A stretch of DNA of 64,000 nucleotides from Gammaproteobacteria bacterium. GTDB lineage: Bacteria > Pseudomonadota > Gammaproteobacteria > Eutrophobiales > Eutrophobiaceae. The stretch is taken from the NCBI GenBank assembly GCA_965205405.1, contig OZ242169.1:333826-397825 (forward strand), read 5' to 3'. Shown here piece after piece: positions 942-61,360 of this stretch. Numbering within the stretch: position 1 is the first letter of the stretch; each line of letters starts with the position of its first letter. The notes below the pieces were generated by a model. It was given only the letters and a program-made list of their open reading frames with translations. It searched no databases and was not told where the DNA came from. Made by a program: the position numbers and the translations under genes.

Positions 942-1026
942 ATATTTGGGGTCAGAGTAAAAATACTCAAGAATAACCCGACGCTACTTGCCAAGTTGAC
1001 TGTATTTTTACTCTGACCCCAAATAT
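942..1026. mobile_element. MITE-like hairpin element, copy 1 (TIR ATATTTGGGGTCAGAGTAAAAATAC; loop subfamily A)
   Basis: 25-bp terminal inverted repeats around a 35-nt loop, in the ubiJ–ubiE intergenic space. Confidence 0.85.
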
Positions 1027-1053
1027 ACAGTGCTGTCCGGACGCCTCCCTTCC

Positions 1054-1788
1054 TCACAACTTGTACCCCTTGTGCAGGGCGACTATACCGTCGGACAAAT
1101 TCAGGTAGTCAACCCGGGAAAAACCGGCATCCTGCAGCATTGTTTTCAGGGTTTCCTGGTCAGGGTGCATCCTGATCGACTCGACCAGGTATTGATAACT
1201 GTCAGGGTCTTTCACGACCAGTTTTCCCAGGGCGGGGATCGCGTGAAACGAATATTTATCATAAATTTGTCTTAGCAAGTCCGAAGTCACCCGGGAAAAC
1301 TCCAGGATAATAACCGGGCTGCCGTATTTCAGCTTGGCGTGAATGGAGCGCAGCGCTGCCATCTTGTCGGTCATGTTGCGCAACCCGAAGGCAAGGGTGG
1401 CACAATCGAAGCTGTTGTCTGCAAAAGGGAGCTGCTGCGCATCTGCGCGTACGCAGTGTATATCGTTGACGAGTCCCTTATCCACCAGCTTGTCCCTGCC
1501 GCATTTCAACATGGCCTCGTTAATGTCGCACAGGACGACGCCGTAACCTGCCTGTTTCAACAAAGCTGCCAGGTCGCCCGTCCCGGATGCTACATCCAGG
1601 ACTGTTGAACCGGGTCTCAAGCTGGCGAGATGAGTACATAAGCGTTTCCACAACCGGTGAATACCGAAGGACATCAGGTCATTCATCAGGTCATAGCGCA
1701 ATGCAACCGAGCTGAAGACCTCGTCCACCCGCCGGGATTTCTCTTCCGGAGAGACCCTCTGGTAACCAAAATCAACCGGCTGGCTCAT
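1054..1788 (-). CDS. ubiE: Ubiquinone/menaquinone biosynthesis C-methyltransferase UbiE
   Basis: A 244-aa ORF with a SAM-binding motif (LDVASGTGDLA) and a UbiE-like sequence throughout. Confidence 0.9.
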   Translation of the reverse strand: MSQPVDFGYQRVSPEEKSRRVDEVFSSVALRYDLMNDLMSFGIHRLWKRLCTHLASLRPGSTVLDVASGTGDLAALLKQAGYGVVLCDINEAMLKCGRDKLVDKGLVNDIHCVRADAQQLPFADNSFDCATLAFGLRNMTDKMAALRSIHAKLKYGSPVIILEFSRVTSDLLRQIYDKYSFHAIPALGKLVVKDPDSYQYLVESIRMHPDQETLKTMLQDAGFSRVDYLNLSDGIVALHKGYKL

Positions 1789-1792
1789 TGGA

Positions 1793-1895
1793 TTTGCGAG
1801 GTCAGAGTAAAATTATTTGATGGATGGGGGTTATGCATGAATCCCGATTTTGGGGTCAGAGTAAAAATTCTAACGAATTTCTTACTCTGACCCCA
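1793..1895. mobile_element. MITE-like element, copy 2: a degenerate half-copy plus a short full hairpin
   Basis: TIR variants GGTCAGAGTAAAATTAT (1798-) and TTTTGGGGTCAGAGTAAAAAT...TTACTCTGACCCCA (1848-1895). It starts 5 bp from the ubiE start codon and overlaps the stop of the DUF971 gene. Confidence 0.8.
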
Positions 1896-2274
1896 GGTTC
1901 TGTGTGACCTGGCGAGTGTAACCAGCTTTTTCCAGTGCCGCCAGGTATGACTGCCAGTGTCGCTCCCGATTTGCTCCCAGTTGATAAAGATAATCCCAGG
2001 TATAAATGCCGGAAGCATGGCCGTCATCAAAACACAGCTTCAGCGCGTAACTTCCCATAGGCTCAATCGCGTCGATATTCACATTTTCCTTGCCCGTCTG
2101 TAATATCTCCTGACCCGGACCATGCCCGCGTACTTCGGCAGAGGGTGAATAAACCCGTAGCAGCTCACAACTCAAGCTGAAACTTTTCCCGTCTGCGTAC
2201 TCCAGCACTAACTGACGCGACTTTTTCTTCAGGCTGACGGATATCGGCCTAGTGGTGGCTGTTTCTGTAGTCAT
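1882..2274 (-). CDS. DUF971 / gamma-butyrobetaine hydroxylase-like N-terminal domain protein
   Basis: A 130-aa ORF. Its C-terminal ...NLGSE* is encoded by the MITE terminal repeat. Confidence 0.55.
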   Translation of the reverse strand: MTTETATTRPISVSLKKKSRQLVLEYADGKSFSLSCELLRVYSPSAEVRGHGPGQEILQTGKENVNIDAIEPMGSYALKLCFDDGHASGIYTWDYLYQLGANRERHWQSYLAALEKAGYTRQVTQNLGSE

Positions 2275-2291
2275 TCAGGTAACAAGCTACC

Positions 2292-2376
2292 ATATTTGGG
2301 GTCAGAGTAAAAACTCATATACGGTCTATAAGGAATCAGCAAAATCTGAAATGAGTTTTTACTCTGACCCCAAATA
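2292..2376. mobile_element. MITE-like element, copy 3 (extended stem ...AAAAACTCAT/ATGAGTTTTT)
   Basis: It exactly fills the gap between DUF971 (start 2274) and hslU (stop 2379). Confidence 0.85.
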
Positions 2377-2378
2377 TA

Positions 2379-3698
2379 TTAAAGGATATATCTGGTTAAA
2401 TCCTCATCCTTGATCAGGTCATCCAGGTGCTCGGCAACGTATTGAGCATCGATATTGACAGACTTTTTCCCCTGGTCGGGGGCGTCAAAGGATAAGGTTT
2501 CAAGCAGACGTTCCATGACCGTGTGCAACCGACGGGCGCCGATATTTTCGGTGGACTCATTGACCTGCCAGGCTATTTCGGCAATGCGCGCTATACCGTC
2601 TTCGGAAAATGATAACTCCACCTGTTCGGTTTGCATAAGCGCTGAATATTGCTGTGTCAACGAAGCATCCGGCTCGACCAGGATGCGGCTGAACTCAGCC
2701 ACACCCAGGGCATCGAGTTCCACCCGGATCGGCAGCCGCCCCTGCAGTTCGGGTATCAGGTCGGAAGGTTTGGAAAAATGAAACGCACCGGAGGCAATAA
2801 ACAGGATGTGGTCTGTTTTCACCATACCGTAGCGGGTGGTCACCGTGGAGCCTTCCACCAGCGGTAGTAAATCACGTTGTACACCTTCCCTGGAAACGTC
2901 TGCGCCGCTGACCTCGGCGCGGCGTGTGACCTTGTCAATCTCATCCAGAAAAACCAGGCCGTTCTGTTCCATGTTCTCCAATGCCCTGAGCTTTATCTCA
3001 TCCTCATTCACCAGTTTCGCGGCTTCTTCCTCGGCAAGGATCTTGAGCGCCTCCTTGATCCTCAGTTTTCTAGTGCGTTTTTTCTCGCTGCCCATACTCT
3101 GAAACATGCCCTGCAACTGACTGGTCATCTCTTCCATTCCCGGCGGCGCCATGATCTCGACACCGATCGCAGGCATATTCACCTCCACCTCGATTTCCTT
3201 GTCATTCAACTCGCCGGTTTTCAGCATTTCTCGGAACTTTTCCCTGGTTGAACTGGTTTGTTCTTCTTCGGGGCCCGATCTGGGACTCGGCAACATGATT
3301 TCCAGCACCCGGTTTTCCGCGGCCAGTTCAGCCCGGTCCCGAACTTTTTCAAGCTCTTCTTCACGGGTCATCTTCACCGCGACGTCCGCCAGGTCACGTA
3401 CGATGGATTCGACGTCTCTGCCAACGTAGCCCACTTCGGTAAACTTCGTTGCCTCAATCTTGATAAACGGGGCATTCGCCAGCCTGGCCAGACGCCTCGC
3501 TATTTCCGTCTTTCCTACGCCGGTGGGGCCGATCATCAGGATGTTCTTGGGCGTAATTTCATTTCTTAATTCTTCGTTGAGTTGGGAGCGTCGCCAGCGG
3601 TTGCGTAACGCGATCGCAACCGCGCGTTTAGCCGCGTCCTGGCCGATGATGTGTTTATCCAGTTCGGCAACGATCTGTTTCGGTGTCAGTTCTTCCAT
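2379..3698 (-). CDS. hslU: ATP-dependent protease ATPase subunit HslU
   Basis: A 439-aa ORF with a Walker A motif (GPTGVGKT) and a ClpY-family sequence. Confidence 0.95.
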
Positions 3699-4252
3699 TA
3701 TTTTGTTGCTCCTGCAGCGGGCAGTTCCTCAATCGTGATATTCCGGTTCGTATAAACGCAGATGTCTGCGGCAATGGCCAGAGCCTTCTCAACAATTTCG
3801 CGCGCATCCAGTTCAGTGTTTTCCATCAGCGCCAGCGCAGCGGCCTTGGCATAAGCCCCTCCGGAACCGATAGCCATGATTCCGGTTTCAGGTTCTATCA
3901 CGTCGCCATTCCCGGAAATAAGAAGCGAATTGGACTTGTCCACGACACACAGCATGGCCTCCAGGCGCCTCAACATCCTGTCCGTACGCCAGTCTTTGGC
4001 CAGTTCAACCGCCGAGCGGACCAGGTGCCCCTGGTATGATTCCAGTTTTGCCTCGAAGCGTTCAAACAGTGTAAACGCATCCGCAGTCCCACCGGCAAAT
4101 CCTGCCAGTACCTGCTCGCGGTAAAGTTTCCTGATTTTGCTGGCATTGCCCTTCATTACGGTATTGCCAAGCGATACCTGGCCATCTCCACCAACTACCA
4201 CTTTATCACCCCGTCGTACTGACAGGATCGTTGTTCCTCTGAATTGCTCCAA
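3698..4252 (-). CDS. hslV: ATP-dependent protease subunit HslV
   Basis: [10 protein letters not shown]...GDGQVSLG matches the HslV N-terminus and it overlaps hslU by 1 nt. The catalytic Thr is preceded by a 6-aa extension (MEQFRG). Confidence 0.9.
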
Positions 4253-4296
4253 TCACTTTCTCCAGGTTAAACGCATTTTATCAGAAAGTAACAACC

Positions 4297-4400
4297 CTGT
4301 CGTAATGCTGAGAACTGCGCAGGAGCTCCCGCTAATTTTGCTGAAAGAGGGTTTGGGGGCTGTTTTTCCGTTCCAACCCTGTCTGTAATGCTGAGAACTG
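4297..4400. promoter_or_regulatory. Two roughly 26-bp direct repeats (AACCCTGTC(T)GTAATGCTGAGAACTG) upstream of hslVU
   Basis: The copies sit at about 4297-4322 and 4374-4400 in the hslV 5' region. Their function is unknown. Confidence 0.35.
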
Positions 4401-4425
4401 TGACAGATTTGAATTCGTCGTTTTT

Positions 4426-5511
4426 TTAAAGTGCCCTGAAAATACTGTCAGCCGCTCTCTCCAGGCTTTCCCGGATGGAGAAAATGCTGTTCCCTGTCAC
4501 CATGGCGGTCGTTATCGGATGGCCTTGTTTTATTTCCGTGCCTTGTGCCGGGATGTCTGCGATGGAAAATCCATCCGTTTTACACCCTTCAAAGATTAAA
4601 TCCTTCGGCGCAAATAAAATAGCCTTGCCAATTAAATGGCGGGGCACTCGTTCCTCAATGTTGACAGGCCGATTTCTACAGGCGTGACAATGGAATTTAA
4701 CGGCATGGATGCCGAGGGCCAGTTCCAGCACCTCGACCGATGCGGTGTACCTGGGGTTGACCTCAACGGGATATATTTTATCCCCCTGTTTGATTGCATC
4801 GATACCGAATAATCCCCTCAATCCGAATTCCTCGGTAACAACCGTTCCAATCCTGTTCCATTGTCTGGTGTCGGTATCGTTCAAATCTATCGGACCGATA
4901 CTGCCGCAATAACCGAACTCTCTTGCATGGAACGCCGGCTCACCAACTAATTGTCGCGTCACTCCCAATAATCGGCAGCCACCCCGGCCGCCGATAAAGA
5001 CTGCCGAAAAGCTCTCGCCCGGCAGATACTGCTGCAGGTAATAACCTGTATTAACGGTTCGACCTCCATGGAATCCAATGCCGATACCGCCGCCACTCAT
5101 TATGGGTTTAACCAGCCAATCATGGGGGGTCGCTATGCCTCCGGCGCCAGTCCGTATATCCGGGCAGGGTATCCGGTTCCGTTGAAACAGCTCGTATAAT
5201 CCGAACGGATCCCGAGTCCTGAGGCAAACCGGTTTTATATTGCCCAGTAACGTCCGTTGAACGCATAACTCTTCCAGAACGCCCGGATGGTTTTCCAGCG
5301 CTCCGGTAAAGATGAAGGGCGCATCGGGCGCCTTGGCGATCAGTGCAACGACTTCCTTCGGATAGTCGGATATTATTTCCCCCCGGAAACGTTGGCGCAG
5401 GTCTTCATCCCCGAACTGATCCAGCCAATACGGCGTATATCCGGCCCGATACGCAGAGAAGGCCGCCGCCCTGGCGCTGGCGCCGACGATGATTAGTGGT
5501 TTAACCTTCAT
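4426..5511 (-). CDS. ATP-grasp superfamily protein (pre-ATP-grasp plus ATP-grasp fold)
   Basis: A 361-aa ORF with Gly-rich ATP-grasp loops. It is divergent from the RimK-like gene. Confidence 0.55.
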   Translation of the reverse strand: MKVKPLIIVGASARAAAFSAYRAGYTPYWLDQFGDEDLRQRFRGEIISDYPKEVVALIAKAPDAPFIFTGALENHPGVLEELCVQRTLLGNIKPVCLRTRDPFGLYELFQRNRIPCPDIRTGAGGIATPHDWLVKPIMSGGGIGIGFHGGRTVNTGYYLQQYLPGESFSAVFIGGRGGCRLLGVTRQLVGEPAFHAREFGYCGSIGPIDLNDTDTRQWNRIGTVVTEEFGLRGLFGIDAIKQGDKIYPVEVNPRYTASVEVLELALGIHAVKFHCHACRNRPVNIEERVPRHLIGKAILFAPKDLIFEGCKTDGFSIADIPAQGTEIKQGHPITTAMVTGNSIFSIRESLERAADSIFRAL

Positions 5512-5534
5512 GAGTTATCATTATAATGAGAGAA

Positions 5535-5616
5535 CTTGGGGTCAGTGTAAAAACCCATTATCAGAATTTGAGAAACTTATAATCAGAATAAAACCGGGTT
5601 TTTACACTGACCCCAA
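5535..5616. mobile_element. MITE-like element, copy 4 (GTCAGTGTAAAAA variant TIR)
   Basis: It lies in the divergent intergenic region between the two ATP-grasp genes. Confidence 0.75.
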
Positions 5617-6506
5617 CATATTTATGAAAAACATCGTAATCTTCTCCGAAAATGACGGCTGGCACGAGCAGCGACTGGCCGGCGCATTCAACCGGTATGG
5701 AGTACGGACACAGGTCGTCTCTTTAAGGGATTGCCATATTGGTTTTGAACAAAGCCTGACGGGGCTGCACATCCCCGGTTTTCCCGATACTCTGCCGGAT
5801 GCCGTTTTTGTACGGGCCGTTGCCGCGGGAAGTTTTGAAGAAGTGACGTTCAGGTTGGATATCCTGCACGCATTGAAACATTCCGGCGTCGTTGTTTATA
5901 ACGACGCCGTCAGTATCGAACGCACCGTGGACAAAGGCATGACCAGTTTCCTGCTGATTAAACATCAGGTTCCGACACCGCCAGTCTGGGCCTGTGAAAC
6001 TGCTGAAGCTGCCCACGAAGTCATCCATACACAACTGCAAAAAGGGCACTCTATCGTACAAAAACCCCTGTTCGGCAACTGCGGGCGGGGCCTGCAACTG
6101 ATCGAGTCTGAGGATTATCAACTGGACGCGGACCTGATCAACGGCGTGTATTACCTGCAACGATTCATCGACCAGGACGATCACAATGGTCGTGACTGGC
6201 GGGTTTTTGTCATCAACCACCGGGCGGTCGCGGCGATGGAACGTATCTCCGATCACTGGGTAACCAACCGCGCGCGTGGTGGCAAATGCCTGCCGGCTGT
6301 TCTCATGCCGGCATTGCGGCAACTGGCCGAAGCTGCTTCCAAGGCAACCGGCATCCTGTATGGCGGCGTTGATATTATCCGTGATTCACAGGGCGATTTC
6401 CTGGTGCTGGAAGTCAACAGCGTCCCGGCATGGCGGGGGCTGCAATCCGTTTGCTCAATCGATATCCCCGACCTGTTGGTTAAGGACATCCTTTACCGCC
6501 AGTTTA

Positions 6507-7442
<936 letters not shown>

Positions 7443-7448
7443 CGATAT

Positions 7449-7530
7449 GCCGGGGCAGGCTTTGTGACTGGATACCGGACAATCCCTGTCCGGTATGACA
7501 ATAGGGCTTGATGACGGCAGGGCCTGCCTT
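7449..7530. repeat. REP-like palindromic element, copy A (core GTGACTGGATACCGGACAATCCCTGTCCGGTATGACA inside an outer GCAGGC/GCCTGC pair)
   Basis: It lies between convergent genes (MTase and RND pump). A second copy at 50305-50345 differs by compensatory stem changes. Confidence 0.7.
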
Positions 7531-7537
7531 GGAAACG

Positions 7538-10500
7538 TTAATCAGGCAATACTTCTGCGGTGACTGCTCCGTCCGGGTATCCGGTCAGCAGCTTGCGCAG
7601 GTCGAACACCAGGCTCAGCATGGCGGGGACGATGAACAGGGTAAACACGGTGGAAACCAGCAGGCCGCCGACTACTACGCCGCCTATGCCCCGGTATAAC
7701 TCCGAACCGGCCCCCGGGGCGAGGATCAGGGGCAACATGGCAAAGGTTGAGGTGCCGGCGCTCATGAATATGGGTCTGATCCGATTTCGTACCGCTTCCC
7801 GGATCGCCTCGTGGGATTCCATCCCCGCTTTCCTGATATGGTTCAGGGACTGGTGCACGATCAATATGGGATTATTGACTACCGTACCCAGGAGGATGAT
7901 GAATCCAAGCATCGTCAATACGTCCAGGGGTTGATAGGCAATGGTCGCATTGACCAGGGCCAGGCCGATAAGTCCTCCCAGTATCGCCAGGGGTACGCTG
8001 AACATGATGACAAAAGGATATAGAAAACTCTCAAACAGGGCGGACATCAGCAGGAATGTGATGATGACCGCCAACACCAGGTTCCATTTCAGCGCGTCAC
8101 CCGCCGCCACCAGTTTATCGGCGCTGCCAGCCAATTCGGCGTTGTAGACACCACCGAAGTCCCCTCTTTCCTTCATGGGGCCGATGATCTCATTCTGTAT
8201 GATCTCCATTGCCGTTTCAGTGGGCATTTTCTCGGTGGGCAATACCCGGATAGTGATGGTCCGTTCCCTTTCCCGGTGGTTGATCTGTACCGGGCCGTAG
8301 GTGAGTGACACGTCAGCGATGGCGCCAAGCGTCACGAGACGGCCATCCGGCGTGGCGATGGGCATCTGTTCCAGCGTGTGGGTGCTGTGGATATAGCTGT
8401 CTTCAGCTTTCAGCCGGATATCGATTTCCTTGCCCTCATACTGGTAATCACTGACCTTGGCGCCATCCACCAGGGCATTCACCGTAAAGCCCAGGTCGCG
8501 ATTGCTTATGTCAAGTTGCGCGGCCCGGCGCCGGTCCGTAACCACCTGAAGCTCAGGGTTTCCCAGGTCCAGGCCGGGGATGGGAAAAGTCTGGGCGCCG
8601 GGTAATACAGCAAAGGACTTTTGAAAGACCTCCCCCCCCAGGGCAATCAGTCTTTCCAGTTCCGGCCCTTTTATTTCAACATCAATACTGCGGCCTTCAC
8701 CACTTTCTTCTTCAAAGATCCCCCATAGTTGCAGGATGGGGATAGCGCCGGGGACGCTGGACATGGCCTCGTGAAAGATCGGGTACAATTCTTTCGTCCG
8801 GCGCGGGTCGTTGGAGGTCACCCCCATAAAGATTACGCCACCCTCGAAACCATAGAAGAAAACATGCAGTCCGCCGCCGGGTAAAGCTTCCGCCTCGGGC
8901 GACCCGGCTGGATGTTCCATCAGGTCTTCCAATGCCCCGGAGAACACGCCGTGGATCCCGACCCGTTCCTCCACCGTATAGCCCGGCGGCGGCAGCAGCA
9001 GGCCAAACAGAAAATCGGTATCACCCGCGGGCAGGTACTCCGTCTCGGGTTTGATGACCAGGCTGATAATTACGGCCAGGGTAACGCACACACCCACAAC
9101 AAGCAGACGGCGCAGGACCGTAACATTGATCCAGTGGGATAATGAGGCAATCCGGTCCCTGACCGCCGAGGCCAGACGTACGCCCCCCCAGAGAGAGCGA
9201 AATCCGCCGGCGCTTGGGGTCTCTCCCGCTACGTTGAGGAGACGCGCCGACAGGGTAGGAATCACCGTTATGGCGATAATCAGGCTCAGGCCTACCGCGC
9301 AACTGATGGCAACCGCGATATCAGCCAGCAATTTTCCTATGTCTTCTTCTATCAACACCACAGGGGCAAATACGGCAATAGTTGTCAGGGTACTGGCCAG
9401 GACTGCCCCCCATACCTCAACAGCGCCGCTATACGCCGCGCTGAAAAAAGGTTGCCCGGCCTGCCGATGCCGGTAGATGTTCTCCAGGACCACGATGGAA
9501 TTATCCACCACCATACCGGTTGCAAACGCCATACCGGCCAGACTGATGACGTTGATGCTCCGACCGAACAGGGCCATCATCAAAAACGTCCCGACAATGC
9601 TGATGGGGATTGCGAGAGCGAGGATCAGCGTACTGCTGACGCTGCGTAAAAATATCAGCAATACGATAATCGCAAGAGTACCGCCGATTAACAGGTTATT
9701 GCGCACCAGTCCTATGGCGCTGTTGATGTAGCCGGTCTGGTCCCAGGCATGCACCAGTTGCAAACCGCGGGGACCCAGTACTTCCCGGTTGAGCTTTTCC
9801 TGCTTCTTCCTTACCTCGTCCATTATGTCCAGTTCATTCGCACCCGTCTGGCGCTGAATGTTCAGTGCGATACTTCTATTATACAGACTGAATATCGCTC
9901 CCGTTGGCTTCTTGTGGGTCAACTCGACCCGAGCTACATCCCGCAGGTAGATCGGCACGTTGTTGCGATTGGCAATGACGATGTTTTCCAGGTCTTGCGG
10001 GGATTGATATTCGCCCACGGTACGCACGATATAACGTCGCTTGCCTTCGTCAAAGTCGCCGCCGCTGTAATTCCGGTTTTCCCGTTCTATAGCGTCGGCA
10101 AGCTGCGTCAACGTCACCCGACGCAATGCCAGCTTTGCCGGGTCGACAATGACGTGGATCTCTGCTTCGCGACCGCCGTAGGTGTTGGCTGATGAGACGC
10201 CCTCCACCCGCTCCAGTTCGGGTATGACGTAATCATCGAGAAGATCATGCAAGGTGGATATATCGCCCTCGAAGCCGTTTTCCTCGGTGGGATCCAGGTG
10301 GAACCAGGCTATCGCTCCCGAGACACCGGACTGACCCGAAATCACCGGCTTCTCAACGTTGGTGGGATAGGACTCCACCTGGTCCAGGCGGTTCGATACC
10401 TTGAGCCTGGCGGCATCCTTATCGGTACCCGTCTGAAACCGCAGCGTGATCACACCGCTGCCATCCTGGCTTTCGCTACGCATTTGCACCAGTCCTTCCA

Positions 10501-11805: not shown

Positions 11806-11851
11806 TTTTCAGTTATCAGCGGTTAATACGCCTGTGATCCTTATAAAAAAA

Positions 11852-12437: not shown

Positions 12438-12490
12438 ATATTTGGGGTCAGTGTAAAAATACAAAGAATTTTTACACTGACCCCAAATTT
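12438..12490. mobile_element. MITE-like element, copy 6 (minimal 53-bp hairpin with GTGTAAAAA variant)
   Basis: ATATTTGGGGTCAGTGTAAAAATAC-aaagaa-TTTTTACACTGACCCCAAATTT, lying between the carbonic anhydrase and the IMPase gene. Confidence 0.85.
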
Positions 12491-12491
12491 C

Positions 12492-15609: not shown

Positions 15610-15840
15610 GCCACAGAGGACACAGAGATCACAGAGATAAGTGTTTAATGCCTTCATGGAGTCTGGTGACGCCAAGTGATTAACAGACTTCGTCTTAGTC
15701 CGGTCTTTTTAAGTAACCGTAGCAACCGGGGACAAATTTAAATCTGCCCCAGTCATTTAAGATGAATTGATAAACAAGCAGGTTCCCCCCACATTAAAAA
15801 GATTCTCGATCCACTCTGTGATCTCTGTGTCCTCTGTGGC
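15610..15840. repeat. Perfect 27-bp inverted repeat (GCCACAGAGGACACAGAGATCACAGAG) bracketing a 177-bp core
   Basis: The copies at 15610-15636 and 15814-15840 are exact reverse complements. The element lies between the convergent hpaC-like and MFS genes. CACAGAG is reiterated three times inside each arm. Confidence 0.8.
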
Positions 15841-19762: not shown

Positions 19763-19877
19763 GATATTTGGATATTTGGGGTCAGTGTAAAAACTCTTGA
19801 CAGATTTTACCAGTACCTGAGATTCCGAATATGAGTTTTTACACTGACCCCAAATATCTACTGACCCCAAATATCTA
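19763..19877. mobile_element. MITE-like element, copy 7, with flanking partial repeats
   Basis: TIRs lie at about 19772-19794 and 19833-19857, with an extra ACCCCAAATATCT solo end. Confidence 0.85.
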
Positions 19878-22082: not shown

Positions 22083-22200
22083 ATATTTGGGGTCAGAGTA
22101 AAAATACTCAACAATAAATCAGCACCGCCAGCTTCGTTGACTGTATTTTTACTCTGACCCCAAATATCTTACTCTGACCCCAAATATCACCCCAAATATC
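22083..22200. mobile_element. MITE-like element, copy 8 (subfamily A), plus two tandem solo right-TIR fragments
   Basis: The full element spans 22083-22166, followed by TTACTCTGACCCCAAATATC and ACCCCAAATATC repeats. Confidence 0.85.
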
Positions 22201-25232: not shown

Positions 25233-27968
25233 ATGATGGGTTCGAATAATTTAATCATCAAAACCAAACTGTTCCCACCGGCAAACAGGACTGGAGTAAT
25301 AAAACGCGCCAGCCTGAGCAAACTACTGGACACGATCGGTACGAAAAAACTGGCTTTGGTGCATGCGCCTGCCGGCTATGGCAAGACGACTCTGTTGTAT
25401 CAGTGGCATAAGTCTATGTTAGACAACGCTCAAACGACTTGCTGGTTGTCTCTGGATGAGTTGGATGATGATCCGGCAACTTTCGTCAGATATATCCTAT
25501 GCGCGTATCAGGAGGTAGTCGATGACTTTTGGGTGGATGCCGCGAATTGGATGGAAGGTCGATTACAACCTGATATCACTATTGTACTCAATCATATAAT
25601 TAATGAATTGATCAGAATTGATATGCCTATAACATTATTTATAGATGATTATCACCACATCAATTCAGTCGACATCCATCAGTTTATTGAGCGACTCGTT
25701 GACTGGTCTCCGGAGAAATTTTTATTAGTCATCGGCAGCCGTATCGTGCCATCACTGTCTCTGAGTAAATGGCGTGTAAGCGAGAAAATGACTGAGGTGG
25801 ATGTCAGCATGCTTCGATTTAGCAGAGTAGAGGCGAATGCGTTTCTGGAACGCAAGCATAAACTTCAGCTTACTGCAGAGCAGATCGCTGTTATCACTGA
25901 AAAAAGCGAAGGCTGGGCTGCCGGTCTCCAGCTAGTGGCTCTGGTGCTGAAAAACTACGATCAACGTGATGAGTTTATTGCTTCCTTTTCAGGCAATCTT
26001 TATGAGATTGCGGATTATTTAACGAATAATGTATTAATACAACAATCTCAATCCCTGACTGATTTTTTGCTTAGGACTTCTATTCTGTCACGATTTAATG
26101 CGGACATATGCAATTTATTAACTGGGCGAAATGATTCACAAAGTGTCCTGGAACAACTGGAAAATGATGGTTTATTTACATTGCCCCTGGATACACACGG
26201 GCATTGGTACCGGTACCATCATTTATTTCATGATTTCCTCACTGGCAGGCTTCGACGTCTATATCCGCATGAAGTTTTGAATTTATATCATAAAGCGGCA
26301 GGTTGGTTTCGCGCCCAAGGACTCATTAAGGAAGCTGTTGATTACGCACTACTGTCAAACGATTTGGAGATGATAGAGGATATTCATCGGGACGCGATAG
26401 CGATCATGTCATTGATGGGAACCACAGCACAGGTATATACCTGGCTTAGCAATATCCCTGATACTGTCAAAGAAAGATTTCCGCGGCTTCTTATATTGGA
26501 GGGTTTTGCCTTATGCCTGATGAACAGGATCCAGAATGCAGAAATTGTTAATACGCGTATTAACAACGCGCTTACCGAATTAGCTAACGATCCAATTAAT
26601 GTTGCCCCTGAAGAATTACGCTCTCTTAAAGCAGAGGCAACCGTCGTGCCGGCATCCATAGCAGCCATGAAGGATGATAATACGCAGCTATTAGCACTAA
26701 CCGAACAGTTGGATGATAAACCCGTGGATAATCTCATGATAGCAACATTGAATGATCTCAGGGGATATGCACAACTCAGGCATGGTCGCTTTGAGGAAAG
26801 TAAAAAGTTGCTTGATCAAGCGTGGCAGTATTTTTCCATAAATAAACAGTGCTATGGTATGGCCGTTGTGGATGGCTTTGCAGGGATAGTAGATATTCAG
26901 CAGTTAAAGTTTCAAGACGCTTATCGGGTTTTTGAGCGCTCGGAAGAAGCTGCAAAAGATGTTGATGGCGGCAACATCTTTGCACGCGCCCTGGCAAGCA
27001 CGATGCGTGCAACAGTATGTTATGAATGGAATAGAGTCGATGAGGCGCAGAAATTATTAAATTCTAATCTGCTGCTTATCGAAGAAATTGGTCCGCCAAT
27101 TTTTTCTTGTTACGGCTACGTCACACTTTCTCGTTGCTATAGTGCCATAGGCGATTGGGATGCTGCCTATAATGCATTGAACCGATGTCTATTTCGTTCA
27201 AAGCAGTGCATTAGCAACTTGTTTCCTGTCTGGGTTGAAAGAGAGCGATTACTGATTGCCAGGAAAATTCTCGACACCGGAGCTGGATATTCCGATTTTA
27301 CCGGCCACTATTCCTTGGCGTCCGATACAATTCCTGATCTATGGGATATTGGCGATTATTTTGAGCGCGCCAACCAGGTTCGCCTGAGTATTTTAGAGAA
27401 CAAACTCGATAATGCTCAGGGACGGGTTATAAGTTTACGTAAATATGCAGAGCAGCACATGGCTTTTCAGGCTGCTCTTGATAGCCTGCTTCTGGAAGCG
27501 CAGATCCTTAAAAAGCAAGAAGATCATGCACAGGCAGTGAACCTCATACAACAGGCTGTGAAGTTGGCAGAACCGGCCGGATTATTACGTACCTTTATCG
27601 ACGAAGGAGAGATAATCAGAGAATTGTTAGAAGGCTGTTTAAAAAACAAGTCTATTACAATCCAGGTCGCCTCTTACATTGAAGAAATACTGCATGCCTA
27701 TTCCTCTGTAGGAGTTTCTTGTACGGCAACTCACTTCTCGACTAGCCATGTGGATAACCACCCGGTCAGCGTTGAGGCACTGAGTAAACGTGAACTTGAC
27801 GTGTTGCAATTACTATCTGCCGGAAAAACAAATACTGAAATTGCAGAGCAATTATTTATAGCCAAGGCAACCGTGAAATTTCATGTCAGTAATATATTCA
27901 GCAAACTGCATGTCACCAATCGCACCCTTGCCGTGGCTACGGCAAGAAACAGTGGCTTGATAAGTTGA
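25233..27968 (+). CDS. MalT-like STAND ATPase / LuxR-family transcriptional activator
   Basis: A 911-aa ORF with an N-terminal Walker A motif (APAGYGKTT), a helical/TPR middle and a C-terminal LuxR HTH. The coding sequence is visibly AT-rich. Confidence 0.8.
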   Translation: MMGSNNLIIKTKLFPPANRTGVIKRASLSKLLDTIGTKKLALVHAPAGYGKTTLLYQWHKSMLDNAQTTCWLSLDELDDDPATFVRYILCAYQEVVDDFWVDAANWMEGRLQPDITIVLNHIINELIRIDMPITLFIDDYHHINSVDIHQFIERLVDWSPEKFLLVIGSRIVPSLSLSKWRVSEKMTEVDVSMLRFSRVEANAFLERKHKLQLTAEQIAVITEKSEGWAAGLQLVALVLKNYDQRDEFIASFSGNLYEIADYLTNNVLIQQSQSLTDFLLRTSILSRFNADICNLLTGRNDSQSVLEQLENDGLFTLPLDTHGHWYRYHHLFHDFLTGRLRRLYPHEVLNLYHKAAGWFRAQGLIKEAVDYALLSNDLEMIEDIHRDAIAIMSLMGTTAQVYTWLSNIPDTVKERFPRLLILEGFALCLMNRIQNAEIVNTRINNALTELANDPINVAPEELRSLKAEATVVPASIAAMKDDNTQLLALTEQLDDKPVDNLMIATLNDLRGYAQLRHGRFEESKKLLDQAWQYFSINKQCYGMAVVDGFAGIVDIQQLKFQDAYRVFERSEEAAKDVDGGNIFARALASTMRATVCYEWNRVDEAQKLLNSNLLLIEEIGPPIFSCYGYVTLSRCYSAIGDWDAAYNALNRCLFRSKQCISNLFPVWVERERLLIARKILDTGAGYSDFTGHYSLASDTIPDLWDIGDYFERANQVRLSILENKLDNAQGRVISLRKYAEQHMAFQAALDSLLLEAQILKKQEDHAQAVNLIQQAVKLAEPAGLLRTFIDEGEIIRELLEGCLKNKSITIQVASYIEEILHAYSSVGVSCTATHFSTSHVDNHPVSVEALSKRELDVLQLLSAGKTNTEIAEQLFIAKATVKFHVSNIFSKLHVTNRTLAVATARNSGLIS

Positions 27969-32247: not shown

Positions 32248-32330
32248 ATATTTGGGGTCAGAGTAAAAATACTCAACTATTATCTGAGGCCATCAGCCAA
32301 CTTGAACGTATTTTTACTCTGACCCCAAAT
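32248..32330. mobile_element. MITE-like element, copy 9 (subfamily A)
   Basis: It lies between the receptor stop codon and the start of the M24 hydrolase gene. Confidence 0.85.
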
Positions 32331-32368
32331 TCACCGGGTTAGTCATTACCACAAGAGGTACATTACAA

Positions 32369-34543: not shown

Positions 34544-34680
34544 ATATTTGGGGTCAGAGTAAAAAGATATTTGGGGTCAGAGTAAAAATACGGGCAATCC
34601 GGTAGATTGTGTTGCTGTACTATTAAGTATTTTTACTCTGACCCCAAATATCAAGTATTTTTACTCTGACCCCAAATATC
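34544..34680. mobile_element. MITE-like element, copy 10 (subfamily B loop CGGGCAATCCGGTAGATTGTGTTGCTGTAC), with a half-copy on each side
   Basis: The full element spans 34567-34650. Solo TIRs lie at 34544-34565 and 34654-34680. Confidence 0.85.
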
Positions 34681-46634: not shown

Positions 46635-46719
46635 ATTTGTGGGGTCAGAGTAAAAATACGGCCAATCCGGTAGATTGTGTTGCTGTGCTATTAAGTATTT
46701 TTACTCTGACCCCAAATAT
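46635..46719. mobile_element. MITE-like element, copy 11 (subfamily B; loop nearly identical to copies 10 and 14)
   Basis: It lies between ilvC and pssA. Confidence 0.85.
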
Positions 46720-47759: not shown

Positions 47760-47805
47760 TTACCTCTCTTGGCTTGTCTCATCACGCTGGTTAAACTCTG
47801 GATCC

Positions 47806-47878
47806 TGGGGTCAGAGTAAAATTATTTGGGGCCTGGTTTATCAGCACATATCCCGACACATACTCTGACCCCAAATAT
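47806..47878. mobile_element. MITE-like element, copy 12 (degenerate)
   Basis: CTGGGGTCAGAGTAAAATTATTTGGGG…TACTCTGACCCCAAATATCC, lying between ilvC and ilvH. Confidence 0.7.
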
Positions 47879-50144: not shown

Positions 50145-50203
50145 TAAGAAGAAATGGTAACTTACTGATATTCTTTACAAGCGTCAAGTTGTGCTTTGCG
50201 GAA

Positions 50204-50226
50204 AATTTGGGGTCAGAGTAAAAATC
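50204..50226. mobile_element. Solo MITE terminal repeat (AAATTTGGGGTCAGAGTAAAAAT)
   Basis: A half-copy with no partner TIR, lying upstream of ilvI. Confidence 0.6.
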
Positions 50227-50304
50227 CCTCGTTCACCATTCCTGCGCAAGCAGGAATCCAGTAAAACAATGCGTCGCCGGAGGCGACACGTCTAATTACG
50301 TCCC

Positions 50305-50382: not shown

Positions 50383-56099
<5,717 letters not shown>

Positions 56100-56121
<22 letters not shown>

Positions 56122-57014
56122 TATATATCTTTCATTGAGCTGATTGCTTCTTTATAGGCTTCACATTCCTCCAGCAGGCGTTTTTGCAGATGTTCATCTG
56201 CCAGGGACTGGAACACTCGGGATCGGGCATGCAGATTTTTATCCTGGCGTTCGATCTCCCCGAGCAACGTATTTGACGAGTCCTCGCCGGTTTCCCCCAC
56301 TCCAAAAAAAATCCCGCCGATGTCAGCGGCGAAATGGATATCCCGGATCGAATCCCCAACGACGACAGGGGGGAATGTTTTGCCAATCTCTGAAGTCAAG
56401 CGGCGTTGGGCGCGAATCTCGCGGCGCCACATACTCCCGACAAAACGGGCCTTCGAACCGTCCGAGGAAGTACCGGGTTCGCCGACGGCAAAGGCATTGT
56501 GCGGACCGAACAAGCCTTTTTGGCTGAGCTTCAGTTCTTCCAGGGAGCGCAGGAATTCAAACTGGGTCTGATAACGATAAGAAACCAATATCATCGATGC
56601 TTCCGTACCCAGAGTTTGCAGAAATTCCAAATGCTCATCCGGTACCTTGTCATACTTGAGGTCTTCACGCAGGTATTGGGTCAGGCGGCGATTGAACAGG
56701 CCGTTGAAATAGAAACTGAGACAATCCTTAACTTCATCCGTAACCGCACTGTCCTGCAGGACACGGTTGATCAATCCCTGAGGACCGCCATGATTACGAT
56801 ACCACTCGCTGCAAAGGTTGCTATCCATATCAGGCAATTCAGCAAGATCAAAATTAGTTTGTGCGAAACGCTTTACTGTGGAATAAGTAGACAGTGAAAT
56901 AGCAATTCGCCTGCCCGATGCGACAGTTGAGGGAATGATCGTACCGTCCAGGTCAAGGAATATCAGCCGCTTCGGTAACAGGTATTTCCGGTATTCACTA
57001 TTGGCTAGTGGCAT
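56100..57014 (-). CDS. HAD-superfamily hydrolase
   Basis: Motif I (FLDLDGTI) and C-terminal GDSxxD-like motifs. Confidence 0.55.
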
Positions 57015-57017
57015 TGA

Positions 57018-58793
57018 TTAATGTGAATGACGCGGGATTTTTTCGGCGATGTTGTTATAAGCCACCATATCATCAAATACTGCGCCACTGCTGAGCGAAG
57101 ATACGTGTTCTCTATATACCTGCTGCCACCAGGTTTGACTCTCAGGAATTTTCAACTGAAGCTTTTGACGCCGCTTTGCAATCTCACTATCTTTAATCAA
57201 CACGTCAACCCGACGCGTATTTAAATCAACTCGAATTTTATCGCCGTCTTTCAGTATCGATAAATTCCCCCCTGCTGCGGCTTCCGGCGAGGCGTTTAAT
57301 ATTGACGGCGCTGCGGAAGTACCGCTTTGCCTGCCATCGCCGATCGTAGGCAGGGCCGTCACTCCCTGTTTGATAATGCGGGCGGGCGGCTGCATGTTGA
57401 CTACTTCTGCTGAACCGGGGTAGGCCACGGGGCCTGCGCCGCGCATCACCAGGATGCTGTGTTCATCTATCTCTAATGAAGGGTCATCAATCCTGTCATG
57501 GTAATCTTCCGGCCCGTCGAAAACGACAGCAACGCCCTCAAAAACGCCGGGAGTATCCGGGTCCGAGAGAAACCGCTCATGGAATGTGGGGCTGATGGCA
57601 GACACTTTCATCACTGCCGAATCGAACAGGTTGCCTGATAAAACCAGTAAGCCGGCCTTACTCATCACAGGCGTGGTAACGTCCTTGATGACTCTGTCAT
57701 CAATGATTTCTCTCCCCCTGCAATTATCGAGAATGGTTTTTCCCGAGACCGTCAACGCACCCTCGTGTAACAACCCCGACTTTTGTAAGCTACCTATCAC
57801 GGCCGGCAACCCGCCTGCCCGGTGGAATTCTTCAGCGAGATATTCCCCCACCGGCCGGCAGTTGACGATCTGGGGAATATGTTGACCGACAACCTGCCAG
57901 TCATTCATGGTCAAGGACACGCTTGCATGGCGCGCGATGGCATTGATATGAATCGGCGCATTGGTCGAACCGCCGATTGCAGCACAAACAACGATGGCAT
58001 TTTCAAACGCCTCCCGCACCAGGATGCGGGAAGGGGTAAGGTCCTCCCGAACCATATCTACGATACGCATTCCCGAATGATAAGCTGTTTGCTGCCTCTC
58101 GCGATATGGCGCCGGGATTGAAGCGGAGCCCGGCATGGACATACCGAGCGCCTCGATCAGGCAATTCATCGTGAGCGCCGTACCCATCGTATTGCAGTGG
58201 CCCACCGACGGAGCTGAGCTGATGGCAATTTCCATGAACGTCTCCTGGTCAATTTCCTCATTGACCAATTTTTTCCTTGCATCCCATATTACTTCACCTG
58301 ATCCCACACAGGTACCCAGGTACGAACCGTTTAACATAGGCCCGACCGACAATGCAATGGCCGGCAGGTTGACACTCGCCGCGCCCATGATTAGAGCAGC
58401 AGTCGTCTTATCACATCCCGTCGTCAGGACGACACCATCAATGGGATAACCGTGCAATACTTCAATCAAACTCAGACATTGCAAGTTGCGGTCCAGGGCT
58501 GCTGTGGGACGGCGTCCTGTTTCCTGAATGGGATGAACGGGAAATTCAAGGGGCACTCCCCCCGCGTCACGTATTCCTTCCCTGACACGCGTTGCCAGCT
58601 CGAGATGATAACGGTTACACGGGGCCAAATCCGAACCGGTTTGAGCAATGCCTATAATCGGACGATCCGATTGGAGTTCCTCACGGGTTAACCCGAAATT
58701 CAGGTAACGTTCAAGGTACAACGCGGTCATGCCCGGTGCATCCGGATCATTAAACCACTGTCGGCTACGTAAAGTATTCTTGACTTTTTTCAT
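57018..58793 (-). CDS. IlvD/EDD-family sugar-acid dehydratase (arabinonate/xylonate/galactonate dehydratase-like)
   Basis: A 591-aa ORF with [Fe-S] cysteines and the IlvD/EDD signature regions. It lies in a sugar-acid operon rather than an ilv cluster. Confidence 0.8.
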
Positions 58794-58796
58794 GTG

Positions 58797-59444
58797 CTAT
58801 TGCTTCTTTATTTTCAGACAATTCCGCGCCTGGTTAAAGGCCGCCACTATTGACTTTGTGTCTGTTTCGATTGCCTCGATGGATTTCCCGGGTTGGTAGA
58901 ACGATGAACCAATACCAAATCCGTCGACGCCTGATTGCAGGTATTCCGCCATGTTATTTGAGTCAATTCCGCCTGTTGCGTACATTTCGATCGGGGATGG
59001 GAACACGGCTCGTACTGCCTTCACTGCAGCGGGGGGTATCATCTCTGCCGGGAACAGTTTGATTGCGTCAGCGCCGGCTTTAATCGCTATATGGATTTCT
59101 GTTGGTGAGAAACAACCGGGGATCACAATCATATTCTCGGCTTTTGCTGCATATATCACTTCAACATCCGTGTGGGGTGAAACGATCAGGCGACCCCCTG
59201 CCCGTTTGACCTGATATACCTGATCGATAGTGGTCACAGTACCCGCCCCTATCAATTTGTCTGTACCGAACTGACGCGAAAGCTTCCGGATTGACTGATA
59301 TGGCTCGGCTGAATTGAGCGTTACCTCCATGACCACTATTCCCCCCCGAGTCAGTACTTCACTCACAGGAATAGCTTCATCAGGCGTTATCCCGCGTAAT
59401 ACCGCTACGACGGGTAGTCCTTTTATTCGATCACCGAACATGCA
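58797..59444 (-). CDS. dgoA: 2-dehydro-3-deoxy-6-phosphogalactonate / KDPG aldolase (Eda/DgoA family)
   Basis: The start is trimmed to MFGDRIKG. VLRGITPDEA…GAGTV… matches the Eda-family aldolase. Confidence 0.75.
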   Translation of the reverse strand, partial: CMFGDRIKGLPVVAVLRGITPDEAIPVSEVLTRGGIVVMEVTLNSAEPYQSIRKLSRQFGTDKLIGAGTVTTIDQVYQVKRAGGRLIVSPHTDVEVIYAAKAENMIVIPGCFSPTEIHIAIKAGADAIKLFPAEMIPPAAVKAVRAVFPSPIEMYATGGIDSNNMAEYLQSGVDGFGIGSSFYQPGKSIEAIETDTKSIVAAFNQARNCLKIKKQ

Positions 59445-60378
59445 AGGTCTCCATTTTTGCCATGACTTTTTCCGAGGTTGACGCCAGTTTCCATAATCCA
59501 TTGACAACGGCCTTTTCAGATGTGCTCGAGTTGACAGCTATATCTAATGCAGAAAAAGCCAAACCATAGTCATGGATAAGCGCATCAGTGCCGATAACTA
59601 CAATGTCCGTGACTTCAGGGTAGAGTTCCAGCGCGGATTTGATCTCCGCGCCAATCAGCAAGCCGGATAAATAACTGGTATTCAGTTTCAAACCGTTTTG
59701 TCTTGATAGCGCGCGCGCGCGGATTGAAAAGAGATGGTGAAGCAACCCCCCATCGCTCTGACTGACACAAATTCCCTCCAGGAATGCGTTTTTGTCAGAA
59801 TCGCATTCATCCAATAAGGATGAGATGGAGCCGCAATGGCGAACCGTAGCAAACACCTCTCCTGTCATAAACGTGGAGAACCGGATAATTTGATTATTTT
59901 CTACTCGAATCCATTTGCTATGCGTTCCCGGCACACAGGCCAGTAGATTCTTGTCCACTGACTGCTCGAGGATGCCAAAAATCTGTGTCTCTTCTCCTCG
60001 AATAACCTCCGGCAGTGTGGATGAAGAGAAAACAGATATGCCGGGCACGATATAAACAGGATGGGAACCGATATCAGTCACTTGCATGATATTATCGCCA
60101 AGGCTACTGATACTCACGGGGCAGGGCAAGTACTCGGTCTCGAACCAGCCGTCGCGACTGCCGATCATACCTGCCATCAGGATCGGTATCTTAGGCTCCT
60201 GCTGTAACCATTGACTACAGGTATTGTAGAGGGTCTCTCCATACCCCCCCTGGTTATGGCAAAAGATACCCTGATTATTTTCCGCCCGATCAAGCAAATT
60301 CCCATTCTCATCCAGCAGGTACGCCCGGAACCTGCTGGAGCCCCAATCAACCGCTACAAGGTCAGGCCGTGCGGACAT
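59431..60378 (-). CDS. dgoK: 2-dehydro-3-deoxygalactonokinase
   Basis: A 315-aa ORF with the DgoK N-terminal motif VAVDWGSSRFRAYL. Confidence 0.8.
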   Translation of the reverse strand: MSARPDLVAVDWGSSRFRAYLLDENGNLLDRAENNQGIFCHNQGGYGETLYNTCSQWLQQEPKIPILMAGMIGSRDGWFETEYLPCPVSISSLGDNIMQVTDIGSHPVYIVPGISVFSSSTLPEVIRGEETQIFGILEQSVDKNLLACVPGTHSKWIRVENNQIIRFSTFMTGEVFATVRHCGSISSLLDECDSDKNAFLEGICVSQSDGGLLHHLFSIRARALSRQNGLKLNTSYLSGLLIGAEIKSALELYPEVTDIVVIGTDALIHDYGLAFSALDIAVNSSTSEKAVVNGLWKLASTSEKVMAKMETLHVR

Positions 60379-61229
60379 TAAACCCGCCCGCCATCAACGA
60401 TGATGGATTGTCCGGTAATCCTGGCGGAAGCATTAGAGGCCAGAAATAAAGCTGCATGGGCAATATTTTCTTCGGTCACCATGGTTTTCAGACACTGTTG
60501 TTGAAGACATTCAGCCAATGCTTCTTCCGTAACCCATAATTCTTTTTGTCTTGCGGTGAGTACCCAACCGGATATCAAGGCATTGACGCGAATATTACTT
60601 GTACCTAATTCACGCGCTAATGACTTAGTCATACCGACAATAGCAGCTTTTGAGGCCACATAAGCAGGATAGCCGGCAAGTCCCAGGTTTGCAGAATTTG
60701 ACCCCAGGTTGATGATGCTGCCGTAACCCAATTCTGTCATATCCTGCTGAACTGACTGGGTGGTAAAAAAATACGGCCGCAGGTTTGTATTCAGTGAATT
60801 ATCCCATTCCTCTACTGTCATTGATTCCAGTTTATGGCGCGTATCCCTGGCGGCATTGTTGATCAATACACTGATGGGACCCAGTGCAGTTCTGACTTCC
60901 GCCATGGCTGCGCGAAGTGCGTCAATGTCCCGGATATCACAGCGGATGTAAAACGGTCGATAGTGTGAGAGTTGTTCCACGTCATCACACAGCCGTTCAG
61001 CCGTTTCTTGTCGTAAAGAGACAAATCCCACCTTTGCGCCTTGTAATGTAAAAGCGCGGGTGAATGCAGCACCGATGCCCGAACCACCACCTGTGATAAA
61101 CACGGTCTGACCTTTAAGATCAGGAAATTGCGGCGCCAGATCATCAGATGAGATAATTGAATTGTTGTTTTCCATTCTCGGCATCCTGTAAACATGAATT
61201 AAAATAGGTTTATTTGTCATATATATCAT
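60378..61229 (-). CDS. SDR-family sugar dehydrogenase (probable aldose 1-dehydrogenase)
   Basis: TGGGSGIG plus YxxxK motifs. The likely true start is the internal MENNN… at about 61178. Confidence 0.75.
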   Translation of the reverse strand: MIYMTNKPILIHVYRMPRMENNNSIISSDDLAPQFPDLKGQTVFITGGGSGIGAAFTRAFTLQGAKVGFVSLRQETAERLCDDVEQLSHYRPFYIRCDIRDIDALRAAMAEVRTALGPISVLINNAARDTRHKLESMTVEEWDNSLNTNLRPYFFTTQSVQQDMTELGYGSIINLGSNSANLGLAGYPAYVASKAAIVGMTKSLARELGTSNIRVNALISGWVLTARQKELWVTEEALAECLQQQCLKTMVTEENIAHAALFLASNASARITGQSIIVDGGRV

Positions 61230-61275
61230 ATATAATTTAACCGGACAATGGCTCTTTTCTTACATCGCACTGAAG

Positions 61276-61360
61276 ATATTTGGGGTCAGAGTAAAAATAC
61301 TTAGTAGTACAGCAACACAATCTACCGGATTGGCCGTATTTTTACTCTGACCCCAAATAT
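61276..61360. mobile_element. MITE-like element, copy 14 (subfamily B, in inverted orientation relative to copies 10 and 11)
   Basis: Its loop is the reverse complement of the copy-10 and copy-11 loop. It lies in the divergent promoter region between the SDR gene and the symporter. Confidence 0.85.

Follow-up and report, generated by a model that had tools for sequence, protein, structure and literature searches.

Dense intergenic hairpin repeats in a gammaproteobacterial chromosome as probable gene-less TIRtron units

What are the short hairpin repeats that recur so densely between the genes of a gammaproteobacterial chromosome, and what could have spread them? The question is raised by a 64-kb stretch of contig OZ242169.1 (assembly GCA_965205405.1, positions 333,826 to 397,825 of the forward strand), which was analysed over its whole length and is referred to here as the window. 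Each intact repeat consists of two inverted arms around a short spacer. We consider it likely that each of these elements is a gene-less (miniature) doublet built from the terminal inverted repeat (TIR) that bounds a TIRtron, and that it is mobilised by a transposase of the TIRYT type; TIRYT stands for TIR-associated tyrosine transposase and denotes a Y1/HUH enzyme within the IS200/RAYT superfamily. The window copies are read as TIRtron units without their gene because the same repeat flanks a Y1/HUH gene in other gammaproteobacterial metagenome-assembled genomes (MAGs). The repeat is a very dense and very widespread addition to the known TIRYT/TIRtron class and no new kind of element. Mobilisation of the repeats in the source genome we only infer, because no TIRYT gene lies within the 64 kb; the recent activity and the transposase encoded elsewhere that an earlier reading of the letters (the sequence-only reading) had proposed for this genome are likewise putative.

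Paired arms in the window

With up to three mismatches, the 25-mer ATATTTGGGGTCAGAGTAAAAATAC matches the window 23 times against 0.00 matches expected from 100 dinucleotide-preserving shuffles, and the 19-nt core, with up to four mismatches, marks 32 arms. Individual inspection of the copies, together with an inverted-repeat scan of the window, sorted the occurrences of GATATTTGGGGTCAGAGTAAAAATAC into 12 clear head-to-head doublets and one that is degenerate, besides a solo arm and a few relics of arms; the density is about one element per 4.5 kb. The hairpin repeats are real and far beyond chance, and the dense hairpin family described in the sequence-only reading stands on these counts. No Rfam family matched the window at gathering thresholds, and a plasmid collection queried with one full element gave no match. 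Only three single matches were found among 2.9 million viral contigs, and we therefore do not regard the repeat as phage-borne.

Arms in the window are mostly 100% complementary across 23-27 nt, the usual gap between them is 35 nt, and both arms have 0 mismatches in four copies. Folded as single-stranded DNA, the doublets reach -22 to -28 kcal/mol with z about -10 (-24.8 kcal/mol and z -10.4 for the copy at 942-1026). A single 25-nt arm reaches -0.1 kcal/mol (z 0.46), a value matched by 86 of 200 shuffles. Among 324 cores from the window and the listed stretches of other genomes introduced below, there are 127 head-to-head versus 4 tail-to-tail pairs, with a modal core spacing of 41 nt. The inverted repeat runs out to (A)GATATTT...AAATATC(T), its outer limit, so the AT or TA bases earlier taken for flanking target sites belong to the repeat itself and are not a target duplication. 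No direct repeat was found outside the arms in any window copy.

Spacers fall into the two subfamilies that had been distinguished earlier, with memberships that hold on loop comparison: A-type loops are carried by the copies starting at 942, 6535, 22083 and 32248, and B-type loops by those at 34567, 46635 and 61276, the last of these inverted. The A-type loops lie on the + strand in 4/4 cases irrespective of gene direction, a sample too small to interpret. Comparison of the window with the listed loci shows that loop length is kept, with loop sequence varying freely beyond the window's own clade. The extended, minimal and degenerate forms noted before are also present, at 2292-2377, 12438-12490 and 47804-47875, respectively.

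Sequence changes in one arm are frequently matched in the other. Within the 19-nt stem, nine of the ten variant sites in the window are mirrored in both arms; counting the stem plus its 7-nt leader, 12 variant sites are symmetric and 12 asymmetric. Examples include an A to T change at position 9 in three copies and the inner triplets TAC/GTA, CTC/GAG and CCC/GGG. Over all loci, position 17 shows 38 symmetric versus 31 asymmetric cases and position 18 shows 52 versus 25. The mirrored variants point to selection for the hairpin or to copying of one arm from the other.

The same repeat around TIRYT genes

The 18-mer TTGGGGTCAGAGTAAAAA was scanned in one genome per species and recovered in at least 113 stretches from at least 77 assemblies (counted by accession prefix), all of them MAGs; at least 77 MAG species have an identical 18-mer. 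The submitters' labels for these genomes include Halieaceae/Cellvibrionales, Woeseiaceae, Chromatiales, Ectothiorhodospiraceae, Thiogranum, Lysobacterales, Methylococcales, Cycloclasticus and unclassified Gammaproteobacteria. A few labels look implausible for this repeat, namely Klebsiella pneumoniae (L016, L058), Enterobacteriaceae (L038, L039, L102) and Cytophagales (L054, 572 nt), and these MAGs are probably mislabelled bins or binning contaminants.

Two of the listed stretches hold inverted arms ~800 bp apart instead of ~35 nt. TIRs at 86(+) and 877(-) of L013 surround an open reading frame (ORF) at 163-888 that encodes 241 aa, and TIRs at 1912(+) and 2685(-) of L006 surround an ORF at 1930-2625 that encodes 231 aa. 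Homologues of this transposase ORF are present in 10 of the at least 113 listed stretches, eight of them with the repeat at one or both gene ends (L044, L030, L020, L004, L073 and L097, besides L013 and L006). The encoded protein is ~235 aa long and matches Pfam Y1_Tnp above cut-off in 6/6 full-length copies (E 1e-10 to 3e-17). In the PDB, a profile of six proteins matches the TnpA of ISDra2 and the TnpA-REP of E. coli (4er8); in the profile alignment the HUH motif corresponds to H63/H65, and the invariant Y123 to the Y of QKYIE. The six-sequence profile was required for this, as phmmer with one TIRYT found nothing in the PDB. To the published TIRYT 'sse 3670' (Additional file 5 of PMC3733652) the L013 protein shows 61% identity over 223 aa, and to the E. 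coli RAYT only 21%. Scores against NCBIfam REP_Tyr_transpos (61.2 and 67.8 bits, cut-off 80) and transpos_IS200 (23.3 bits, cut-off 55) stay below threshold. Of the three candidate transposase types that the sequence-only reading had named (IS630/Tc1, IS200/605 and IS5), the IS200/IS605 superfamily is the one that suits, through this enzyme of other genomes, whose unit has ends that match the window arms.

A metagenome scan with the six-protein alignment left 80 loci, 64 of which had enough flank to evaluate. An inverted repeat of at least 14 nt carrying GGG(G)TCAG, GGGGACAG or GGGGCCAG flanks 47 of the 64 homologues, and 12 of these 47 have GGGTCAGAGTAA-type repeats. The outer GGGGTCAG is near-universal in these TIRs and the inner half varies with the protein. 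On the left, the repeat has its inner end ~10-135 nt (mostly 30-95) before the ATG; on the right, it overlaps with the gene's 3' end: the TIRYTs of L013 and L044 end in ...EFLL*, residues that are encoded, together with the stop, by the TIR GAGTTTTTACTCTGA, and the TGA in its CTCTGA is the stop of both genes (L013 883-888; L044 ~4187-4192). Variant TIRs surround TIRYT genes in L001 (AAATGGGGTCAGATACAAC, 4100-5000) and L020 (AATAGGGGTCAGAGAGCATTTG, 960-1900). Because these two stretches also hold the main-type repeat, a single genome may harbour several TIR families and TIRYT types. In L120 (~1-105), a TIRYT unit starts a few bases after an apparent tRNA-gene 3' end (...GGTTCGAATCCCTCCCTCTCCGCCA).

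The outer ends of TIRtrons and of doublets often carry short duplications. A direct partial copy stands just outside the arm at 60 of 377 cores (16%); the duplicated unit joins a leader of 5-9 nt to the initial 5-22 nt of the arm and forms an exact short tandem across the outer boundary, in some cases with three or four reiterations. Window cases are found at 19859-19875, 22169-22195 and 34544-34566, and TIRtron ends carry outer-boundary duplications too (L006, L013, L020, L115, L135). The arms at 34544, 34655 and 22169, earlier regarded as solo relics, are partial or complete tandem duplications of the ends of neighbouring doublets. As for the cause, we can only suggest that the outer boundary is nicked repeatedly and resynthesised to a limited extent, or that replication slips at the base of the hairpin. 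Further outer-boundary duplications were seen at L011, L044 and many other loci.

These properties correspond to a class that already has a name. Di Nocera, De Gregorio & Rocco 2013 (PMC3733652) described RAYT-like genes with long flanking TIRs instead of repetitive extragenic palindromes (REPs) and called these genes TIRYTs and the whole units TIRtrons; there the dispersed TIR families are 'moderately abundant', with 'many organized as REPs in dimers or clusters', and the TIR motif is given as GGGGWSAS (PMC3733652; PMC6006769). The present repeat is alike in placing a Y1/HUH gene between long TIRs that are not self-complementary, in carrying GGGGTCAG, which fits GGGGWSAS, in every window arm, and in its dispersal as singles, dimers and clusters. 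It is unlike the class as portrayed in that paper in its density, about one per 4.5 kb rather than 'moderately abundant', and in its hosts, which are uncultured marine and sediment-type Gammaproteobacteria. The sequence-only view of a Correia/ERIC-like element of an undescribed kind gives way to membership of the TIRYT/TIRtron class of PMC3733652. One of the TIRs in Figure 9 of that paper, which shows those of sse 3670, mpc 0880, cps 4446 and hch 1378, may read GGGGTCAGAGTAAAAA and so be identical to the present repeat. Fifteen-mers of the repeat have no match in the searchable full-text literature, and 12-mers match unrelated mammalian primers only. Quentin et al. 2018 (PMC6006769) placed 20 of 26 TIRYTs in TnpA-Y1 subclass 2.1, which in those authors' view probably corresponds to the TIRYTs and which occurs in ~15% of the strains surveyed there; TIRYTs are thus a widespread group. 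The enzymes studied here probably belong to this subclass as well.

In a TIRtron, a TIRYT gene lies between two inverted ...TTTGGGGTCAGAGTAAAAA... copies. A window copy has two such arms alone, head-to-head around a ~35-nt spacer, and as single-stranded DNA or as RNA it folds into a perfect 23-27 bp stem. In the mechanism we propose, the paired arms would be extruded as a hairpin, on the lagging-strand template for instance, and in this form they would be recognised by a TIRYT whose gene lies elsewhere in the genome. The enzyme would cleave near the outer boundary; the unit would then be moved or copied to other intergenic sites without target-site duplication. Selection would purge insertions in genes, so that the remaining hairpins would sit in operon spacers. 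Both the TnpA of IS200/IS605 and the E. coli TnpA-REP act on hairpins in single-stranded DNA, which they cut and rejoin, and by analogy with them we propose TIRYT catalysis and a single-stranded DNA intermediate. The elements resemble IS200/IS605 insertion sequences and their miniature derivatives in the HUH/Y1 core, in the lack of target-site duplication and in hairpin DNA as the likely substrate. They are unlike it in that the ends here are TIRs, whereas those of IS200/IS605 are subterminal hairpins without TIRs, and in that the proteins here are ~90 aa longer and fall below the transpos_IS200 cut-off.

In architecture and in behaviour the doublets are REPIN-like. A REPIN (Bertels & Rainey 2011, PMC3116915; PMC3337134) likewise consists of two inverted units that form a hairpin around a spacer, is extragenic, shows mirrored arm changes, and is a non-autonomous element that depends on a Y1 transposase gene with copies of the repeat at its own flanks. 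In contrast to REPINs, the unit here is not palindromic and lacks the GTAG tag; the enzyme comes from the TIRYT branch and not from the REPIN-linked RAYT groups, and MAGs assigned to different orders have the same 18-mer, whereas REPs are described as lineage-specific. A more specific and rather doubtful extension is that the doublets are the TIRYT counterpart of the REPIN-RAYT partnership: old, mostly vertically inherited and maintained by a single-copy enzyme. Were this extension true, an 18-19-nt arm identical in at least 77 species, served by TIRYTs that are 55-60% identical, would imply a very strict protein-DNA recognition code, and the outer-end duplications and mirrored variants would be footprints of the reaction, left by an outer nick and by arm-from-arm copying.

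Turnover among relatives and competing explanations

In common genes, the window is 95% identical to L047 (CBDCTH010000012.1) and ~84% identical to L091 (OZ252091.1) and L042 (JAPOQU01). Turnover of copies, in line with the sequence-only reading, is visible in site differences between these close relatives. A single empty site was available, that of doublet 2292-2377 in the orthologous spacer of L091, and there the two genomes are too diverged (~16%) to give exact element junctions or a target. An orthologous copy of doublet 6535-6619 is present in L091, and the doublet between ubiE and ubiJ (942-1026) recurs there at 6577-6647 with its loop reverse-complemented, which could reflect a recombination flip between the arms or an independent insertion. 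At the site of 32248-32332, L042 has a doublet with an unrelated loop. The ilvH-ilvC spacer (47804-47875) contains different palindromes in L047, within flanks that are 95% identical.

The solo arm at 50203-50227 had been interpreted as an excision relic, and it sits instead at a breakpoint of synteny. Synteny with L047 stops exactly at the inner edge of the arm; since L047 has a complete doublet at this place (4727-4811) followed by different downstream genes, we take the solo arm to mark a rearrangement breakpoint. Past the arm, the window holds unrelated small hairpins at 50238-50257 (ATTCCTGCGCAAGCAGGAAT) and 50273-50287 (GTCGCCGGAGGCGAC) and a glycoside hydrolase family 2 gene, and past the doublet L047 holds a 640-nt non-coding stretch and then a 571-aa gene. 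A TIRtron remnant in L047 was suggested by the TIRYT of L152, which lies beside a homologue of the doublet's neighbour gene; this idea was dropped, as the 640-nt spacer holds no decayed TIRYT.

Several points weigh against gene-less TIRtron units mobilised by a TIRYT. No TIRYT gene was found in the 64-kb window (tblastn best E 0.17), and the stretches sampled from the three closest genomes yielded none either; activity in this lineage is therefore unproven. Sites that are occupied in both relatives by elements with unrelated loops could be old, slowly decaying copies and not the product of recent movement. Quentin et al. (PMC6006769) report no REP-like sequences beside subclass 2.1 genes and describe a C-terminal helix-turn-helix (HTH)-like domain for this subclass (Bac_DnaA_C / HTH_23 / HTH_28); Pfam models, which are not those authors' profiles, detect no HTH family in the conserved ~90-aa C-terminal extension of the six TIRYTs even at E<=10. 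Lastly, the term TIRYT is used by just two papers in the searchable literature, neither of them with an enzymatic test, and mobilisation is argued by analogy.

Some of these points are shared with a different account, in which the repeats are structural or regulatory palindromes selected by the host (mRNA stabilisers, RNase III sites, terminators or protein-binding sites) and the TIRYT has been lost or is inactive, leaving copies that decay or are 'domesticated'. The lack of a TIRYT in the window would suit it, as would copies inside operons (the ubiE-ubiJ and ilvH-ilvC spacers) and downstream of ilvC, the conserved length and free sequence of the loops, and the occupation of several sites in relatives that differ by ~16% in DNA. 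Nonetheless, many arms are perfect while loops and flanks have diverged, copies differ even from those of the 95%-identical relative, and the identical sequence bounds transposase genes; a functional role would, moreover, not exclude mobility. We regard this account as unlikely.

Explanations that invoke other mobile systems fare worse. A classical REP family, or one of bacterial interspersed mosaic elements, with a canonical RAYT, as in E. coli or Pseudomonas, would share the extragenic location, the high copy number and the inverted pairs, and the Y1/HUH protein does weakly match NCBIfam REP_Tyr_transpos and PDB 4er8. That score is nevertheless below cut-off, and identity is 21% to the E. 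coli RAYT versus 61% to the published TIRYT. A REP is defined (PMC3733652) as an imperfect palindrome of 20-40 nt with a GTAG (or CGTC) tag at one end. Since a single arm is unfolded and no palindrome (-0.1 kcal/mol, z 0.46), and since GTAG and CGTC are absent from GATATTTGGGGTCAGAGTAAAAATAC and its complement, these are not classical REPs, and we hold this origin to be very improbable. Hardly any credence is left for a miniature inverted-repeat transposable element derived from a DDE insertion sequence (IS630/Tc1, IS5 and others), Correia/ERIC-like and inserting at TA or AT. Long TIRs, small size and AT-rich flanks speak for such an origin, which was the impression of the sequence-only reading, and Correia (NEMIS) and ERIC elements are likewise small, intergenic and bounded by TIRs, lie beside genes and form long hairpins when transcribed. 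Their TIR sequence is different, though, and their mobilisation is tied to DDE-type enzymes rather than to one of the Y1 type (background in PMC3733652). In the present elements the AT-rich bases are part of the inverted repeat; the TA target that Correia duplicates has no equivalent, as no copy shows a target-site duplication; neither Rfam nor the plasmid collection gave a match; and the only gene type found between the TIRs (GATATTTGGGGTCAGAGTAAAAA) is Y1/HUH. With neither a target-site duplication nor a DDE transposase, the repeats are not Correia- or IS630-type miniature elements.

As a natural case this lineage is unusually clean, combining very high density, perfect arms, clear loop subfamilies and site differences among close relatives. 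It is therefore a good system for studying TIRYT mobility, cut sites and the effects of hairpins on ubi and ilv transcripts.

Individual copies and their gene neighbourhood

The window is ordinary chromosome with a GC content of ~0.51, in which no tRNA genes were found. Rough coding density is 86%, and all elements lie in the remaining ~14%, barring overlap with the last codons of the upstream gene at two copies (1849-1897 and 6535-6619); the claim that every copy is intergenic thus holds essentially, and fails for these two. Several elements lie 1 nt from a stop or start codon. For annotation this means that the repeats supply stop codons, abut genes by 1 nt and lengthen ORF calls. Genes in the neighbourhood of the elements encode UbiE, an SCP2/UbiJ-like protein, an hslU-like ATPase, two ATP-grasp enzymes, a DNA methyltransferase, an AcrB-type pump, an inositol-monophosphatase-family protein, an amidase, a FadB-like protein, an Lrp-type regulator, a TonB-dependent receptor and the products of ilvI-ilvH-ilvC. 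Doublets within operons occupy the ubiE-ubiJ and ilvH-ilvC spacers; their position makes transcription of these copies very probable, and the hairpins in operon spacers are probably co-transcribed.

The doublet at 942-1026 has perfect arms of 25 nt and an A-type loop of 35 nt; it separates ubiE (1054-1788) from the SCP2/UbiJ-like gene (291-887). The ORF at 1054-1788 was suspected of encoding a transposase on account of the copies that flank it, and was rejected as UbiE. A relic single arm follows at 1795-1813 (+, 4 mismatches to the 19-nt core), and a short doublet at 1849-1897 has an 11-nt loop and a degenerate right arm that overlaps the stop codon of the gene at 1882-2274. The doublet at 2292-2377, 1 nt from the stop of the hslU-like gene, has an extended 27-nt stem with the inner triplet CTC/GAG.

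Between divergent ATP-grasp genes lies the doublet at 5535-5617, an AGTG variant with the inner triplet CCC/GGG, in which the AGTG and CCC/GGG changes are each mirrored in both arms. Its apparent overlap with a gene is attributed to an over-long ORF call, because the RimK N-terminal domain begins at residue 2 of the protein starting at 5627. A relic arm at 6507-6525 (+, 4 mismatches) stands just outside the next doublet, 6535-6619, which has an A-type loop and whose left arm provides the stop of the RimK-like gene: the stop TAA (6551-6553) is the TAA of GAGTAAAAA in the arm. One nucleotide after this doublet starts a stand-alone N6/N4 DNA methyltransferase gene (6621-7442; Pfam N6_N4_Mtase, E 4e-67), with no restriction partner evident nearby and no room for a ribosome-binding site outside the repeat.

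A minimal 53-bp doublet at 12438-12490, with a 7-nt loop and the AGTG variant, lies 1 nt from the stop of the inositol-monophosphatase-family gene. The element at 19772-19875 consists of a doublet (19772-19857, AGTG variant, CTC/GAG) and a 17-nt tandem duplication of its right outer end (19859-19875), and that at 22083-22195 of a perfect doublet with an A-type loop (22083-22167) and two partial tandem copies of its outer end, reaching to ~22195. Seven nucleotides past the stop of the TonB-dependent receptor gene is the doublet at 32248-32332, with an A-like loop. The composite element at 34544-34679 contains a perfect inner doublet (34567-34651) with a B-type loop, an extra partial left arm of 23 nt (34544-34566) and an extra complete right arm (34655-34679).

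The remaining copies are associated mainly with the ilv genes. The doublet at 46635-46719, with a B-type loop, lies 20 nt downstream of ilvC; the degenerate doublet at 47804-47875 is in the ilvH-ilvC spacer; and the solo arm at 50203-50227 (+) is upstream of ilvI. A perfect doublet with an inverted B-type loop, 61276-61360, separates divergent genes for a short-chain dehydrogenase/reductase (SDR) and a sodium:solute symporter.

Two further features of the window were noted. Between 24001 and 28000, GC dips to 0.45 from ~0.52 elsewhere, in a stretch that encodes a MalT/LuxR-type STAND regulator (911 aa, 25233-27968) and an SDR protein and that may be acquired DNA. A second short self-complementary repeat, GGGGACA(G/A)AtTTAAaTCTGyCCCc, fits GGGGWSAS and occurs once, at 15728-15751, between genes for a flavin reductase and a major facilitator superfamily transporter. 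It is also present in the two closest relatives (L047 ~7150-7180, L042 ~5990-6015) and may belong to a second TIRYT type, GGGGACAG TIRs being found around L165, L181, L185 and L190.

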